Below, piece by piece: positions 9,212 through 15,828 of a stretch of DNA of 20,803 bases (position 1 is the first letter of the stretch; each line of letters opens with the position of its first letter). The notes below the pieces were generated by a model, which worked only from the letters and a program-made list of their open reading frames with translations, searched no databases and had not been told where the DNA came from. Source of the DNA: a virus. Its lineage: Duplodnaviria; Heunggongvirae; Uroviricota; Caudoviricetes. The position numbers and the translations under genes are program-made. The stretch is from the IMG/VR virus record IMGVR_UViG_2579778622_000006, positions 1 through 20,803 of that record. One strand, written 5' to 3'.

Positions 9212-10453
9212 CTACACGGCTCGGATACCCCTTTTACCACTGGCGAGGGTTACGCCCGTCGCCGCAGCCTCGACAAATTCGCCCCACCAGCGCATCAGCA
9301 CGATGCGTTTTTCTATGTAGTTGCTCCGGTTGTATGCCCGTCTAACTTCGTTGGTGTCGACGTGGGCAAGTGCCGCCTCTATTACGTCCGGCTCGAATCC
9401 TTCCTCGTTCGCTGCTGTGCTGAATATGGCGCGTAATCCATGAGACACCAGCACGCCAGCGAATCCCATACGCCGCAATGCTGCGTTAGCTGTCTGGCTG
9501 TTCATCGGCTGCTGTGGGTCTTTCAGACTTGGGAAAACGTAATTGCGGTGGTGGCTGATTGGTTTCATGGCCTCCAGCACCGCCATAGCCTGACCGGAAA
9601 GCGGGATAACGTGATCCCTGCGCATCTTCATGCGTCCGGCAGGTATCGTCCATTGCTTCGCGTCCAGGTTGATTTCATCCCACCGCGTTGATGACGCTTC
9701 GGCGGGACGGGTTACGGTCAGTAACTGCCATTCAATCAGTAATCTGGTCTGCCGTTCTGTTGCCGATACTGATAAAGCCTGCATAAGCTCGGGCAGCTGT
9801 TCGGGGCGGATTGTTGGCATATGTTTTTTTACAGGTGAGGGAAACGCCTTACGCACATTCATAGCCGGATTGGCATCAATCAGCCCACTGTTGGCGGCGT
9901 AATCCATTACCTCATTAACGCGCTGTAAAACCCGCTTGAGTGTTTCCAGGTTGCCGCGCTCCTTGATGGGGGTAAGCACTTCAACGAACCTTCGGGCGGT
10001 GAGGGTATCTATTGGCGTGTTGCCGATGAACGGGAATACATATTTATCCAGCGAACGCCAGATGTCTTTAATCGTGTTGGGGGCCAGATTCTGGCTGATT
10101 TTCACCTGGTACCATGCCGCCGCCACATTTTCGAACGTGTTCCCTTGTCTTCGGGCCTCTGTCTCTCTTTTTTGCCTCTCGTGGTCCTGCGGGTCAGTTC
10201 CGGCACTGATTAACGTCCTGTACTCGCTACGGCGTTTTCTGGCATCAGCCAGGGAAACATCTTCAAGCGATCCAAAACTCAGCAATATTCTTTTTTTGTC
10301 CGATGGTCGGTAGTAGGAAAATCTCCAGAGTTTTGATCCAGACGGTTTGACCAGGAGAAAAAGCCCTCCGCCGTCCTGCAGGGTGTACTCCTTTTGCGCT
10401 GGTCTGGCTGCTTTGATCTGCACTGTGGTTAATGGGTGTGTTTTTCTCGCCAT
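9212..10453 (-). CDS. int: tyrosine recombinase, P4-type integrase
   Basis: N-terminal arm-binding-like domain (LTTVQIKAARPAQKEYTLQDGGGLFLLVKPSGSKLWRFSYY), catalytic C-terminus with R...HGLR and terminal RAYNRSNY (Tyr). Adjacent to the tRNA 3' remnant. ATG at 10453 preferred over the GTG at 10471. Confidence 0.9.
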   Translation of the reverse strand: MARKTHPLTTVQIKAARPAQKEYTLQDGGGLFLLVKPSGSKLWRFSYYRPSDKKRILLSFGSLEDVSLADARKRRSEYRTLISAGTDPQDHERQKRETEARRQGNTFENVAAAWYQVKISQNLAPNTIKDIWRSLDKYVFPFIGNTPIDTLTARRFVEVLTPIKERGNLETLKRVLQRVNEVMDYAANSGLIDANPAMNVRKAFPSPVKKHMPTIRPEQLPELMQALSVSATERQTRLLIEWQLLTVTRPAEASSTRWDEINLDAKQWTIPAGRMKMRRDHVIPLSGQAMAVLEAMKPISHHRNYVFPSLKDPQQPMNSQTANAALRRMGFAGVLVSHGLRAIFSTAANEEGFEPDVIEAALAHVDTNEVRRAYNRSNYIEKRIVLMRWWGEFVEAAATGVTLASGKRGIRAV

Positions 10454-10485
10454 ATGTCTATGATTCCACACGAAAAAACAGGGTT

Positions 10486-10912: not shown

Positions 10913-11764
10913 ATGAAAAAAAGAACTAAAAAAGGCAGTAACATTCGTTTCCGAGAACACACTGAGGTTGAGAGGTCTTACATTAGCCTTTATAAGATCT
11001 TCTGCCGCGCTTGTGAAATTTCCGCGGCCATATCACTGAATCAAAGCGGAATTAAGACTGACGGCAGGGGAATACGGGCTGCAAATATTTTCACTCGTCA
11101 AGTGTTGACTGCGCATAGTCTTAAGAAACTACTACCAGTACTGCGAAACGGAGTTAATCCCGATGATACAGTATGGGATGTAACCACTATCGCACTTGTG
11201 TCCAGAAGTGTGATGGAAAATTTTCAGGCGCTTTTTTATTACGGAACGGAAACGGTCTCGGAAGCGGAGGCTGACTTTCGTTTTCGAATTTTCCAGAAAG
11301 ACAGAAATGTTAAATGGCGTGATATCAGACTGAAGGCTGGTGAATCTGAAGAATCACTGGAGGAGTTTTTCACCGGCATACCAAAGCAGCAGGAGGAGAT
11401 AGTGAACCATGAATTCTATAGTTCACTATCTAAAGAACAAAAGAATAGTCTCAAAAACAGGGCCGAAATGTATTATACCAAAGCTGAGTTCGAAGCTCGC
11501 TGCCCGCGGTTAGCCGACATTGCACTACATCACCAGTTACTATCAAATCTGGCTCATCCATTGCCACTGGCTATCCACAGGATTGATGAATTTAGCGGTC
11601 ATGGTGCACCCAGTGAAGCTGACATCTGCTTAGTCATAATATCCCTGAAGGTTGCTACAGACTGCCTAATTGCGTCAGTTGAGGGGATGGGCGAAAAATT
11701 TGCCGATAGTATCGGTATACATTATCGGTCAATGATTGAAGAACTCTCCAATTACTCACTTTGA
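10913..11764 (+). CDS. hypothetical protein, AT-rich cargo gene (candidate accessory or defence function)
   Basis: 283-aa ORF, the only plus-strand gene between the att remnant and the lambdoid int; visibly lower GC than its flanks; convergent terminator hairpin downstream; R-x6-H motif (RLADIALH) in the C-terminal third. Confidence 0.6.
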   Translation: MKKRTKKGSNIRFREHTEVERSYISLYKIFCRACEISAAISLNQSGIKTDGRGIRAANIFTRQVLTAHSLKKLLPVLRNGVNPDDTVWDVTTIALVSRSVMENFQALFYYGTETVSEAEADFRFRIFQKDRNVKWRDIRLKAGESEESLEEFFTGIPKQQEEIVNHEFYSSLSKEQKNSLKNRAEMYYTKAEFEARCPRLADIALHHQLLSNLAHPLPLAIHRIDEFSGHGAPSEADICLVIISLKVATDCLIASVEGMGEKFADSIGIHYRSMIEELSNYSL

Positions 11765-11857: not shown

Positions 11858-13036
11858 TTAGCTGGCTTTAATTTCTCCATGGGGAACGACAACCCAATCT
11901 ATATGATTTTGCGTGTAGATCTTGGTTGACTTCGCATCGCTGTGCGCCATTCGTCCTTGTGGATCGATACCCTGCTGATCGAATAGATGCGCTGCTAGTG
12001 CTCGAATTTCGTGAAAGGTTGGTCTTTCATCCATTGGTAGATTGTCGCATAAACCTAGTTTGTCCCGTGTAGCTGAAAACGACCTACTCAAATAGTCCGG
12101 TGCAACTTGAGTAGGATGTGAAACCTCTTTGCTGCGTTTAACTTGGCGTTCTGGGATCCTGTGAACGACAAACGGACTGGCCACATTATCTCGGCTATCG
12201 TCAATTATCCGTTTCAACTCTTCACCAATTGGTATTGCAACGTGTGACGCCTCTTTTTGTTGCACTTTTTGCCTGTGGATGTAAAGCGTCCCATATATGC
12301 CATTTTGTGGTTGTTCGAACCAGACACATCCACATATACCGTCTTTAGGTTCGCGAATTGAGTAACGGATTCGCGATACTTCGAGTCGTGCATGTGTAGT
12401 CTGCAATGCTAGGTCCATTGCTGTTCTTAACCATGGTGCAGCGGCCTGCCTGATAGCTATAAAATGCTCGAGTGACAGGCGCCGTCTTTTCTTCTCATCA
12501 GTCCTACGCATTTTTTTTCTGATGGCCGGGTTATCCAGCATTAGTGATTCATCGACCGCATAAGAGAACAACTTTTTAAGAAAGCTGACCTTTCTGTTCT
12601 GCACATTTGCGGATGCGCTGGCATGATATTTGTTGATGTAGGTATTAACGTGTTCAAGTTCGATATCGCATGCCGGAACATTTACGAAAAACGCTTTTAC
12701 GCGTAGAGCGTCATTTTTCCAGTCATCTAAGGTGCTCTGGGAAGGACGTTCGTCTTCGATAATTCGGGCCATTATGTGATCAACATGTTCAGCAAATGGT
12801 TTTGCTTCTCCGATAACACCGCCAGATTCTCTAATAAGATTATCTACTGATGGAGATAATTCTGGTCGCATCCTCAGGTTGTACTCTCTGGCGATTGCAA
12901 TGGCTATTGCCCTATCCTTACCTATATTTTTCTTCTTTCCGGTAATAAGTGTGAATTTATAAACACCTCGATCTTTATCAAAAATCAGATAATCAGGAAG
13001 ATGTCTGTATTCTTTTTTACGTGGCCTTGCCGCCAT
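11858..13036 (-). CDS. int: tyrosine integrase, lambda Int family
   Basis: Aligns to recalled lambda Int in several blocks (LSLEHFIAIRQAA..WLRTAMDLA vs LTADEYLKIYQAA..WLRLAMELA; RPTFHEIRALAAHLF vs PPTFHELRSLSARLY). ATG at 13036 with GAGGGGTGA RBS; the ORF-track start at 13042 is a GTG. Confidence 0.9.
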   Translation of the reverse strand: MAARPRKKEYRHLPDYLIFDKDRGVYKFTLITGKKKNIGKDRAIAIAIAREYNLRMRPELSPSVDNLIRESGGVIGEAKPFAEHVDHIMARIIEDERPSQSTLDDWKNDALRVKAFFVNVPACDIELEHVNTYINKYHASASANVQNRKVSFLKKLFSYAVDESLMLDNPAIRKKMRRTDEKKRRRLSLEHFIAIRQAAAPWLRTAMDLALQTTHARLEVSRIRYSIREPKDGICGCVWFEQPQNGIYGTLYIHRQKVQQKEASHVAIPIGEELKRIIDDSRDNVASPFVVHRIPERQVKRSKEVSHPTQVAPDYLSRSFSATRDKLGLCDNLPMDERPTFHEIRALAAHLFDQQGIDPQGRMAHSDAKSTKIYTQNHIDWVVVPHGEIKAS

Positions 13037-13038
13037 GG

Positions 13039-13248
13039 TCACCCCTCATTTATTAACTTGCGAACAGCTTGACTAACCATTGAGTCGACTCCCCATTTTT
13101 CTGTTTCGCAGACAAAAACAGAACCGTCCACGATACGCCCCATGAGCAGACCGTTCTCGACCCAGCGTTTTATCGTTCGGTTGTCAGGAATTGAGCCATT
13201 AGAGAATTCACGGCGTCCCCATTGGCTCGCTTTCATTAGTTTTGCCAT
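13039..13248 (-). CDS. xis: excisionase (Xis-like)
   Basis: 69 aa from the ATG at 13248 (GGAGAAA RBS). Pattern ASQWGRREF...RTIKRWVENGLL...DGSVFV resembles lambda Xis (LQEWNARQ...ETVRRWVRE). Lies immediately upstream of int. Confidence 0.7.
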   Translation of the reverse strand: MAKLMKASQWGRREFSNGSIPDNRTIKRWVENGLLMGRIVDGSVFVCETEKWGVDSMVSQAVRKLINEG

Positions 13249-13525: not shown

Positions 13526-13884
13526 TTCTTATTCTCCGGTGCTTTCGGCATTACTGCCCAGTGAGTGATATTGACGTTTTCAAGGTCCCCGACCTGAAAT
13601 GTCCACTGCCATTCTCCGGTTTCTTTTTGCCCCCATGTGTACCAGAGAGAACGCCAGCCAATCAGCCAGCCTTCTCCGTTAGCATCAAATAACAGAACAC
13701 TTTCATTTGCTGGTGGCAGTTCAGCTGACACTGGTATTACTTTGTTTTCCAGTGCTGCACATTTAGCTTCAAGCGCATCTAATTTACGCACCAGGTATTC
13801 AGCATCCGTTTCATTCACTTTCAGGTCTCGTGGTACACATCTCCCGCGAAGAAACCCTTCCATTTCGAAAACATTCATGCGCAT
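13522..13884 (-). CDS. hypothetical prophage protein (Trp-rich C-terminal domain)
   Basis: 120-aa ORF, GGAG RBS 8 nt upstream of the ATG; coiled-coil N-terminus and Trp-rich C-terminus. Confidence 0.5.
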   Translation of the reverse strand: MRMNVFEMEGFLRGRCVPRDLKVNETDAEYLVRKLDALEAKCAALENKVIPVSAELPPANESVLLFDANGEGWLIGWRSLWYTWGQKETGEWQWTFQVGDLENVNITHWAVMPKAPENKK

Positions 13885-14411
13885 TTGCGTAACTCCGATA
13901 ACTCGTGAAAGCGTTCCATAAACATCCCGTAGGCATGGCCCGGTGGCATTGGAATCACGTTGAACATCTCTGTTGCCGGGATGCCTTCCAGTACAGGCCA
14001 GAAAGAGCCATCATCAAGCCCGAGATCGCGGCGTTCGGTTGCCAGCATAATGAGATCGGCATATTTCACTGGCGTGCTCATAACAGGAGGTAACCCGTAT
14101 TTCTCACGGATTACGGCGTCTATTTTTTCTTCCATCCGTTTATAGTCAGGAAGAAGGCGTTTCAGTGGAGCGGGGATGTCCTGGCAATACGCTTCTGTTG
14201 CATCATGCATTAACGCTTCAAAAGCAAATTCCTGCGGTACCAGCTGGCTGCAAAGAACCGCATGTTGGGCGACGCTGTAGAAGTGTGAAAGATGTCCTGC
14301 AAAGCGACAGATATTTGAAAGGGAAACCGCGATATCGTTAATATCGATGTTGTCTTTATTTATCCGGTCATAATAAAAATGCTTCCCGGAAAAAGTTTTA
14401 ATAAATGACAT
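13875..14411 (-). CDS. HD-domain metal-dependent phosphohydrolase
   Basis: 178 aa from the ATG at 14411 (GGAG RBS); H...HD signature (VAQHAV ... ALMHDATEAY). Confidence 0.7.
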   Translation of the reverse strand: MSFIKTFSGKHFYYDRINKDNIDINDIAVSLSNICRFAGHLSHFYSVAQHAVLCSQLVPQEFAFEALMHDATEAYCQDIPAPLKRLLPDYKRMEEKIDAVIREKYGLPPVMSTPVKYADLIMLATERRDLGLDDGSFWPVLEGIPATEMFNVIPMPPGHAYGMFMERFHELSELRKCA

Positions 14412-15082
14412 TTCGTTCTCCACGTTATATGCGCTGCACCGCGTTGAATTTTGGTTGCAAGAATCCCTCGCCATCCGGCGATTATTGAGTCAATTACGTT
14501 TCCATAAATGCCCCCGCAGGGGCGGTTAGTTTCTCCACAAAACAGAGAAGAACACCTACGGTAGTCACTGCCGGATGGATTGGGTTATGAGCCCATCGTC
14601 CGGTGATGCTCTTCTCTGTTTTGTAAAAAGGGCGGTGCCAGAAAGGACTAAGGAAAAAACTGGTACCGCCAAAGCAATGGCAGTTGTGGTGGGGTTGTCA
14701 CTCAGGCGTATGGTCAACCTGACAACCCGGTGTCCTCAACGGGGAAAGAGTAACCCCGCCATACTTACCGCCGCGCCATTTCGCGGATTACCACAACGCA
14801 GAGAGCACTTAGCCAGTTACGGCACCACACTTTGTCGCGGTTCCATAAATGCCCTCATCGTTGCACCCTGGTCTCTTCCCAGGCGTCAAACCGAATCGCC
14901 ACGCTGGTTAGGCGTCTTATCAGCATCCTCATTGACTTGCACATTCCGGCTACCTGGTTTGTTTGCCCGAGCAAGGAGTGGATTGTCCCCTTTAACGTCT
15001 CCAGACCGCTAACGACGCATGTGCCATACGCCGTGTTACAACCAAATTTTGTTTGAATCTTGCCTGCTTCATGTTTCTTTTG

Positions 15083-15109
15083 GGTACATTATGTATCTCA
15101 AAGGTACAT
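15083..15109. promoter_or_regulatory. candidate left operator (O_L) dyads
   Basis: GGTACAT-t-ATGTATC (15083-15097) overlapping ATGTATC-tcaaa-GGTACAT (15091-15109); same half-site family as the dyads flanking the cI start. Confidence 0.45.
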
Positions 15110-15153
15110 TGTCAAGTATAAAAAAACCTGCCGAAGCAGGTTCATAACATTGA

Positions 15154-15828
15154 TTAGGCTTTGATTTTGTATCTTCTTGGTTTTCCTGAGAAAATTACTG
15201 TACCAATTATAGAGCAATTACCGTTGATCTTAATGTAAGGCTCAGGCCAGTTTGGGTTTAATGCTTTGAGATAACGCTGTGTTCCATCTTCTATCAATCG
15301 CTTGAAGGTGGTTTCGCCTGTATCGTGCATCAACGCAATAACGTCGTCACCGTGGCAAGCAGGGACTTCAGGATCAACAAAAATCATGTCTCCCGGGCGG
15401 TACTCATCAATCATTGAATCACCAATCACCCGCAAGATATAAGTCATTTCGCCACAGGGTACAGGGCAGGGATACGTTTCCGCTGTGCTCAAATCAACCT
15501 CAGAATAACCAACTTCTTTCCATGCTCCGGCCTGTACCCATGATATGACAGGAACTAACGTAATTTGTTTGTTAGTGATTGAAACATCAGGTTTTTTTGT
15601 GATGTTTGTTGTCTGGTGTTCTTGATCAAGCCATCCGACAGGCAGGTCGAAGCATTTTTCGATGTGCCGTGCCATGCTGTCACCGATATTTTTAGTGGCG
15701 CCATCCCCCATAAACCTGCTGGTTTGGGTTGGCTCGCGATCAATCATGGTGGCAAAGGAAGAATTCCCGCCAACACCATCTCTCAGTTTTCTGGCGTTAG
15801 ACCGCCGGATGTCATGGACTGTTTTCAT
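15154..15828 (-). CDS. cI: CI-like prophage repressor with S24 (LexA-type) autopeptidase domain
   Basis: 224 aa. C-terminal S24 signature with catalytic Ser in VIGDSM and Lys in TFKRL; N-terminal HTH-type region; divergent from the cro-like gene across palindromic operators; no strong SD. Confidence 0.85.
   Translation of the reverse strand: MKTVHDIRRSNARKLRDGVGGNSSFATMIDREPTQTSRFMGDGATKNIGDSMARHIEKCFDLPVGWLDQEHQTTNITKKPDVSITNKQITLVPVISWVQAGAWKEVGYSEVDLSTAETYPCPVPCGEMTYILRVIGDSMIDEYRPGDMIFVDPEVPACHGDDVIALMHDTGETTFKRLIEDGTQRYLKALNPNWPEPYIKINGNCSIIGTVIFSGKPRRYKIKA

Follow-up and report, generated by a model that had tools for sequence, protein, structure and literature searches.

The window analysed here is a stretch of 20,803 nucleotides from a tailed virus of the class Caudoviricetes (IMG/VR record IMGVR_UViG_2579778622_000006, positions 1 to 20,803), and its subject is the untranslated leader that lies between the early-left promoter pL and the first early-left gene. 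The leader is about 670 nucleotides (nt) long and runs on the minus strand from about 15081 to 14412. It is a non-coding, functional structured RNA rather than junk, and comparison with other phages indicates that it is a mosaic of at least five independently mobile RNA modules. We consider it probable that this leader is expressed on induction as the precursor of several processed, stable RNAs, and that a terminator within it also attenuates the downstream genes xis and int. Roughly a third of the leader is, by homology, a variant of the long DicF species, an RNA already known, and the use of helices for processing is likewise familiar. Another module matches no catalogued family.

The original prediction, which was made from the letters of the window alone, described about 600 base pairs (bp) at 14475-15075 as free of open reading frames (ORFs), GC-rich and highly structured. 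Its essentials are real (the structure, the lack of coding and the repeats), but its coordinates and its statements on ORFs and GC content are inexact. The interval covers most of the leader; the real stretch is longer, from about 15081 to the ATG at 14411. No reading frame is conserved among 57 distinct homologous leaders, in which the longest ORFs vary in strand, position and length, but the minus strand of the window does hold a 50-codon ORF with a TTG start (14717-14565), and the plus strand holds ORFs of 145 and 74 amino acids. GenBank records, including those of cdtI, Ayreon and mEp460, annotate a short ‘hypothetical protein’ here, and these annotations are mutually inconsistent. The GC content is raised relative to the flanks, although modestly (0.50-0.55 versus 0.41-0.47). 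The structure is well founded: the minus-strand RNA from 15045 to 14495 folds at -213 kcal/mol with z = -3.79, none of 100 shuffled sequences folds as well, and two modules (A and C, described below) show compensatory changes across homologues. The plus strand of the leader gives a fold z-score of -3.09. That the RNA is read from the minus (pL) strand is borne out by covariation that includes G-U pairs, which would be C-A on the opposite strand.

Searching the whole window against Rfam at gathering thresholds returns no match, and searching three sub-regions in E-value mode returns only sub-threshold matches at chance level: to C4 on the plus strand, to rsmX in the cI terminator and, with 11 bits, to DicF. 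The known prophage small RNAs (sRNAs) AgvB, AsxR and STnc100, for which Rfam models exist, have no match in the window either. The Pas sRNAs were considered as an identity for the leader and ruled out; they are late-region RNAs from another locus.

The original prediction treated the leader as one long RNA, and this part does not survive comparison with other phages. A sensitive BLAST search against phage genomes splits the leader into blocks that occur independently. Block A (15047-14870) matches P1, P7, D6 and SJ46, where it lies between tRNA-Ile and ban, and is also found in phiV10-type (epsilon15-like) phages directly upstream of tRNA-Arg. Block C (14797-14683) matches PPompW, many other prophages and the K-12 prophage Qin, and block D (about 14691-14512) matches SfII, SfIV, ST64B, e14 and others. 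Among 5,426 complete Escherichia coli genomes, 4,767 contain at least one block and 1,071 contain 80% or more of the leader. A minimal leader is found in Klebsiella phages ST101-KPC2phi6.3 and 1 LV-2017, where the order is simply cI, terminator, pL, module A, stem B, GUUGUGUGGAGAnACUAAC and the first gene. In the window, the junction of this minimal leader looks like the point at which module C, the DicF-like hairpin and module D were inserted as cassettes. On the 3′ side of the conserved ...CGUUGUG junction the payload varies by phage and may be tRNA-Arg(UCU), a tRNA-like domain with a T-arm (as in K. pneumoniae ATCC 13883), a domain closed by GUUGUGG...CCACAAC, or module C. Because the payloads differ after the GUUGUG junction, the leader behaves as a cassette array in which RNAs are separated by processing helices.

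Several further observations concern these payloads. Loci L141 (K. pneumoniae ATCC 13883), L137, L142, L151 and others carry payloads of about 100 nt closed by GUUGUGG...CCACAAC; some of these have a perfect tRNA T-arm, GCUGGUUCGACUCCAGC, and a D-arm but also a long insert, and the hairpin AUCACGCCUUAGGACCGUGAU often follows them. In epsilon15-like phages (L126, L128, L130, L149 and L152) a conserved palindrome, ATTACCnnnnnGGTAAT, lies by a TTGACA-type promoter ahead of the RNA array, which suggests a dedicated operator for that small operon. Within the window, a 17-mer repeat occurs at 14497-14513 and 14838-14854 (GGGCAUUUAUGGAAC/A on the RNA strand). The copy at 14838-14854 is the 5′ strand of stem B, and that at 14497-14513 forms the tail of the small hairpin that comes last. 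Within the latter copy, at 14512, the homology with cdtI-type phages breaks off, and thus this copy looks like a junction of module recombination. The 14-mer TTCCATAAATGCCC, reported in the original prediction as occurring twice, lies inside this 17-mer and is found exactly where predicted, at 14500-14513 and 14841-14854.

Module A is a structured RNA of 167 nt (15033-14867, minus strand) that begins about 45-50 nt past the predicted pL start. Its structure was read off an alignment of 26 diverse sequences and then compared with 500 shuffles and with slid pairing partners. Four helices covary, and the whole constitutes a covariation-supported RNA family: 98.5% of the alignment cells are standard pairs, 11 pairs have changed on both sides, none of the 500 shuffles reaches the observed values, and the slid-partner controls pair in only 28-44% of cases. 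In 5′ to 3′ order along the minus strand, the elements are helix P1 (CGGCG/CGUCG, 15033-15029 / 15017-15013); the variable hairpin P2, with its base at about 15009-15002 / 14958-14951; the invariant 18-mer GUAGCCGGAAUGUGCAAG (14953-14936); P4′, with a 7-nt loop (14915-14912 / 14904-14901); and P5, with a conserved GAAGAGA loop (14883-14879 / 14871-14867). The module probably contains two pseudoknots. In PK2 (CACC/GGUG, 14909-14906 / 14892-14889) a C-G pair is cleanly replaced by A-U in 4 of the 26 sequences with zero exceptions, and the candidate PK1 (GGCACAU/AUGUGC, 15024-15019 / 14944-14939) is unproven because its bases are invariant. A closing helix around the module was considered and ruled out, being inconsistent across members. 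G-U pairs are frequent (15 of 26 sequences at one P1 pair and all 26 at one P2 pair); on the opposite strand they would read C-A, which identifies the RNA as the pL-sense strand. The unpaired stretches UAUGGCACAUG, AGCGGUC and GUAGCCGGAAUGUGCAAG are invariant.

The members of this family come from lambdoid, P1-like and epsilon15-like phages of Enterobacteriaceae. A 24-mer of the module, AACCAGGTAGCCGGAATGTGCAAG, is found in more than 120 viral contigs, and its 18-nt core in 23 prophage loci (Kosakonia, Citrobacter, Klebsiella, Kluyvera, Enterobacter, Phytobacter, Buttiauxella, Erwinia and others); more diverged copies are present in Klebsiella, Salmonella and Enterobacter phages. No Rfam 15 family matches module A even at E-values up to 10, no record annotates it, and no description of it was found in the searchable literature. 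The suggestion in the original prediction that the leader may encode a novel non-coding RNA therefore stands for module A, whereas about 170 nt of the remainder are homologous to an RNA already described. The invariant 18-mer and an 11-mer of the module each occur once in the 20.8 kb with mismatches allowed, so that no second copy is present in the window and none in the pR operon. Phage P1 has an unannotated copy between trnI and ban (AF234172 71010-71194; locus L004, 2501-2685), and UUUUCUGGUGAUGAC, just after that copy, resembles the DicF 5′ seed UUUCUGGUGACG.

Next along the transcript is stem B (14794-14863, minus strand), a long helix whose pairing, CAACGAUGAGGGCAUUUA (14863-14846) with UAAGUGCUCUCUGCGUUG (14811-14794), was read from the sequence. 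It encloses a variable apical insert, and its last GUUG is common to the closing stem of module C. By eye, the helix is kept in homologues that have other sequences (AAGAGCAUU/AGUGCUCUU and GAAGCGCAC/GUGCGCUUC), and in K-12 Qin a helix of the same type lies just upstream of DicF, where the 5′ end made by ribonuclease III (RNase III) in the 190-nt DicF species maps. By analogy, stem B is proposed to be an RNase III processing site. The 3′ strand (14811-14794) reads UGCUCUCU, with UGCUCUUU in several homologues (L135, L137, L139 and L263), and both resemble the core of boxA (GCUCUUUA-like) in rrn and lambda nut sites. This segment is base-paired and covaries to unrelated sequences elsewhere; because the helix covaries, we judge the likeness to boxA to be probably a coincidence. 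No boxB-like hairpin was identified in the leader.

Module C (14797-14683, minus strand) is a cloverleaf-like four-way junction of 115 nt. A closing stem, S0 (GUUGUGGU/ACCACAAC), joins three hairpins, and a pseudoknot pairs GUAUGG with CCAUAC of the third loop. Across 17 sequences 94.3% of positions in the helices are paired and 9 pairs have changed on both sides, values that none of 500 shuffles reaches; the pseudoknot shows one compensatory change, from U-A to C-G. As in module A, the G-U pairs place the RNA on the minus (pL) strand. The module shares 94% identity with the ydfC-dicB interval of K-12 Qin (locus L158, 3001-3107), and the Qin homologue ends 25 nt before DicF (L158, 3133-3184), which the Rfam DicF model recognizes at 76.7 bits. 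According to a preprint (bioRxiv 10.1101/2023.04.14.536235, citing Faubladier 1990), DicF exists as a 53-nt species with a 5′ end made by RNase E and as a 190-nt species with a 5′ end made by RNase III, and the two share a 3′ end made by the terminator. Counting 190 nt back from the DicF terminator leads to the GUUGUGG that opens module C, and thus module C and DicF together make up the 190-nt RNA. By this sequence correspondence, module C is homologous to the 5′ domain of that RNA.

In outline module C recalls a tRNA, since S0 and three hairpins are combined with a pseudoknot from junction to loop, but the junction lengths are unlike those of tRNA. ARAGORN finds no tRNA or transfer-messenger RNA genes, and there is no Rfam tRNA match. 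In phiV10-like phages a tRNA-Arg sits in the module C slot. Phage P1 has an annotated ‘dicF-like region’ (68791-68892), which in the alignment corresponds to the third hairpin of module C followed by a terminator of its own. The conserved module C loop CCAUACGCC (14705-14713) is perfectly complementary to GGCGUAUGG (15024-15032), which comprises a strand of helix P1 and its loop in module A; this pairing was considered and ruled out, since the 9-nt match is not kept in phage P1. Within module C the loop pairs with GUAUGG to form the pseudoknot.

The segment that follows (14625-14682, minus strand) aligns with the terminator hairpin of K-12 DicF. The hairpin consists of GGCGGUACCAG (14670-14660) and CUGGCACCGCC (14641-14631), with 10 of 11 possible pairs and a pyrimidine-rich loop of 18 nt, and is followed by five U residues (14629-14625). 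It lies about 455 nt downstream of pL and, by its form and alignment, would also be an intrinsic terminator. The terminal hairpins found at the DicF position in different prophages keep the stem and vary in the loop, as expected for a diversifying trans-acting seed. By position and descent the hairpin is a relative of DicF rather than a member of the Rfam family. No cis target for its loop was found in the window.

Module D (14537-14624, minus strand) is closed by a stem of 20-25 bp (14624-14600 / 14561-14537), which is apparent both as an inverted repeat and from homologues in e14 (‘ymfH’), SfII, SfIV, ST64B and others. It contains a conserved inner hairpin, GAUGGG-CUCAUAA-CCCAAUC. The arms are conserved and the apical part has indels, and some positions are compensatory by eye. 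Homologue comparison also delimits the 3′ end of the array (14504-14536, minus strand), where the conserved junction GGAGAAACUAAC (14536-14525) is followed by the small hairpin GCCCC-UGCG-GGGGC (14523-14510), AUUUAU and the second 17-mer copy; in Klebsiella phages with the minimal leader the same junction comes directly after stem B. In K-12, e14 ymfH (locus L159, 2863-3174) starts exactly at the GUGGUGAAU cassette domain and spans both a DicF-like terminator hairpin near-identical to that of the window and the long stem of module D. The ymfH frame is broken in the window by a 1-nt indel, yet the hairpin arms are identical; thus ymfH is probably not protein-coding, and we regard it as probably an RNA locus rather than a gene. 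The e14 prophage of K-12 may encode a second, unrecognised DicF-type RNA. No description of an e14 ymfH RNA was found in the literature.

These modules also account for the individual stems listed in the original prediction, which are present but slightly displaced. The 14-mer pair is found at 14538-14551 and 14610-14623 (9 and 2 nt from the predicted positions), within a 25-nt inverted repeat (14537-14561/14600-14624) that is 84% complementary; the 11-bp stem, with 10 of 11 pairs on the minus strand, is at 14631-14641/14660-14670, 2 nt away; and the GCCCC-cgca-GGGGC hairpin is at 14510-14523, 1 nt away. The interpretation as long-range pairing of the leader fails, since the two 14-mers pair to close module D and the 11-bp stem is the DicF-like terminator hairpin.

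In the mechanism we propose, pL, once induced, would transcribe an untranslated polycistronic precursor of about 670 nt in the order module A, stem B, module C, DicF-like hairpin/terminator, module D and small hairpin, followed by the coding genes from the HD phosphatase to the integrase. By homology with Qin, many transcripts would halt at the DicF-like terminator. RNase III would cut the long helices, stem B among them, freeing module A and a cloverleaf-plus-DicF-like RNA of about 173 nt that would be the counterpart of the 190-nt DicF of Qin. The DicF-like RNA would then act in trans on host messenger RNAs (mRNAs) via its variable loop. Read-through transcripts alone would reach the downstream early-left genes including the integrase gene, and so the array would attenuate them.

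Several results weigh against this mechanism. The terminator pattern scanner gave the DicF-like hairpin no score, its loop being 18 nt. The Rfam DicF model (RF00039) matches 14673-14630 on the minus strand at model positions 12-52 with only 11.4 bits (E = 2.8), against a threshold of 48, and a gap of about 19 nt relative to K-12 removes the DicF 5′ seed, UUCUGGUGACG, from the window. With the model failing and the seed missing, DicF-type targets cannot be assumed. For PK1 of module A the evidence consists of invariant bases, and an extended P1 hairpin is an alternative. Finally, several lambdoid phages have module A as the sole element between pL and the first gene, a position for which a cis-acting role fits at least as well as a trans product.

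Module A could accordingly be a cis-acting RNA that modifies the transcribing RNA polymerase, resembling put without being related to it, so that the DicF-like terminator and Rho-dependent stops are read through and N/nut is replaced. The module lies early in the transcript, upstream of the terminator. It comes right after repressor and pL in mEp390, Klebsiella ST101-KPC2phi6.3, Klebsiella phage 1 LV-2017 and Stx2a/Stx2c phages, despite repressors of at least four types and differing downstream genes, and none of the module A members examined has an N gene. It has long unpaired stretches that are invariant, and these suggest a surface at which a conserved host machine would bind. The sequence itself, however, shares only chance 9-10-mers with putL and putR, and the size and architecture differ; the term ‘put-like’ used in the original prediction thus fails on sequence and architecture, and on the pR side, where no copy exists. 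The single copy in the window also speaks against polymerase modification, as do the contexts elsewhere: P1 has the module in the middle of an operon, past the dicF-like terminator and the tRNAs; epsilon15-like phages have it ahead of a tRNA gene; the minimal Klebsiella leader has no terminator between module A and the first gene; and the Qin operon, where dicB follows the DicF terminator, contains no module A. On balance we think this role possible but rather unlikely. We give similarly limited credence to a broader version, in which module A would represent a new class of phage RNA acting on a conserved host machine (a put-independent modifier of RNA polymerase with which N-less lambdoid, P1 and epsilon15-like phages transcribe through terminators and untranslated arrays) and the cloverleaf before DicF-family RNAs would be a tRNA mimic that directs processing.

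The double pseudoknot and the invariant junction nucleotides are typical of aptamers, and module A might then be a riboswitch-like sensor of a ligand or factor that sets early-left expression by host state. Its platform would be a competition for GUUG (14797-14794), which can pair with CAAC either at 14863-14860, in stem B, or at 14686-14683, in the closing stem of module C. We find this improbable: no Rfam riboswitch class matches, the gene context implies no ligand, and elsewhere the module precedes tRNA genes and ban without an evident terminator or a platform that would sequester a ribosome-binding site. Decay of a protein gene (e14 ymfH, or the hypothetical genes of cdtI, Ayreon and mEp460) or of tRNAs would make the structure incidental, and it would explain why the K-12 annotation places ymfH where the DicF-like hairpin and module D have their homologue, why several phage records place a short hypothetical coding sequence here, and why tRNA-Arg is at the module C position in phiV10-like phages. 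It is nevertheless very improbable, given that the annotated ORFs disagree in strand and frame between records, that the longest ORFs differ among the 57 leaders, that the indel in the ymfH frame leaves the hairpin arms unchanged, that neither ARAGORN nor the Rfam tRNA model finds a tRNA, and that compensatory changes and G-U pairs amount to selection on RNA pairing. We attach scarcely any probability to a functional plus-strand antisense RNA of the P1 C4 / P4 CI type directed against the pL transcript. The Rfam C4 model (RF01695) does match the plus strand at 14673-14775, but at 21.3 bits (E = 0.22), far under the gathering threshold (45 bits); a search of the plus strand upstream of that match found no promoter, the covariation-backed helices differ from the C4 alignment, and the G-U pairs exist on the minus strand only. 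The C4 match itself reflects the reverse complement of the nested hairpins of module C and is unsupported by covariation.

The window is a lambdoid prophage, and E. coli UMNF18 carries an essentially identical one (99.8% across the query). Upstream is a cI-like repressor gene of the LexA/S24 type (15154-15828, minus strand; PHROG 4, transcriptional repressor, E = 1.9e-49), closed by an intrinsic terminator with an 8-bp stem and a T run that was found by the terminator scan (15124-15143, minus strand). The left promoter assumed in the original prediction is supported: pL, TTGACA-16-CATAAT (15115-15088, minus strand), matches 11 of 12 consensus positions, its start is predicted near 15081 from the position of the -10 element, and the Ayreon record annotates the same promoter. 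GGTACAWT operator half-sites at 15083-15090 and 15103-15110 overlap pL, and GGTACA repeats are also found on the pR side, so that both flanks of cI-cro carry them, including the divergent cro promoter. From cro to the next gene there are just 31 bp. The first early-left gene encodes a YfdR-like HD-domain deoxyribonucleoside 5′-monophosphate phosphatase of 178 amino acids (13875-14411, minus strand; PHROG 318, E = 2.2e-109), and its ATG at 14411, preceded by GGAGAA, is the 3′ limit of the untranslated leader. Downstream, the PHROG search shows two small genes, a possible xis and an integrase gene (11858-13042). The same search finds no N-like protein or antiterminator family among the early-left ORFs, in agreement with the predicted absence of an N-like gene after pL, and N is also absent from the related phages with module A that were examined. 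A minus-strand terminator scan from 14411 to the integrase gene finds no other strong terminator.

A separate observation concerns the end of the prophage. Two integrase-family genes (9212-10471 and 11858-13042, both minus strand) lie 1.4 kb apart, and between them are a plus-strand ORF of 283 amino acids (10913-11764) without a PHROG match and a strong terminator (10625-10598). The pair may mark the prophage end abutting a second integrative element.

Read as a precursor of processed RNAs, the leader explains what stands in the place of N/nutL in a large set of lambdoid prophages that lack N, among them Stx2a, Stx2c and Cdt-converting phages. The analysis yields an RNA family backed by covariation, for which even phage P1 lacks an annotation, and it indicates that a four-way-junction domain is conserved in the long form of DicF and that DicF-type hairpins are a family with exchangeable loops. 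Should module A control elongation, put would be joined by a second RNA solution to antitermination.

The put RNA suppresses termination by binding the zinc-binding domain of the beta-prime subunit of RNA polymerase. Module A is like put of HK022 in being a structured nascent RNA just after pL in an N-less lambdoid phage and upstream of terminators. It differs in having 167 nt with four helices and candidate pseudoknots, in lacking a pR copy and in occurring also by tRNA genes in P1 and epsilon15-like phages; the put RNA of HK022 is about 70 nt with two stem-loops (PMC9378689). Comparing the two HK022 sequences, putL and putR, with the window by blastn-short gives only matches of 9-14 nt with E-values above 1. 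The GOLLD and ROOL RNAs (bioRxiv 10.1101/2024.12.08.627333) are, like the leader, phage-borne, highly structured and often found by tRNA genes. They are unlike it in their size of about 600-800 nt and in belonging to other bacterial lineages, and they have no Rfam match in the window.

Small structured RNAs are also cut from the untranslated operon start in P1/P7 (C4), P4 (CI) and N15, with tRNA-like features that guide processing. The resemblance is that these too are leader-derived structured RNAs; the differences are that the C4 match here is sub-threshold and on the wrong strand and that no complementary target sites turned up in the window. RNase III helices separate cistrons in the T7 early RNA (R sites), in the lambda N leader/sib and in ribosomal RNA operons. 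Similarly, the RNA units of the leader are parted by stem B and the stem of module D, each about 20 bp long; the sites here are putative and, unlike those above, have variable apical inserts. DicF, finally, represses ftsZ and other host mRNAs by base pairing. Its single-stranded 5′ seed released by RNase E, UUCUGGUGAC in RF00039, is missing from the window along with the rest of the gap of about 19 nt, the loop is unrelated, and the window has neither ydfABC upstream nor dicB downstream. The 190-nt species of the Qin dicBF operon is nevertheless like the RNA proposed here in several respects: it lies at the same place in an early operon that is under repressor control in a lambdoid prophage, it ends in a GC-rich hairpin and a U run, and it has a long helix just upstream where RNase III makes the 5′ end.

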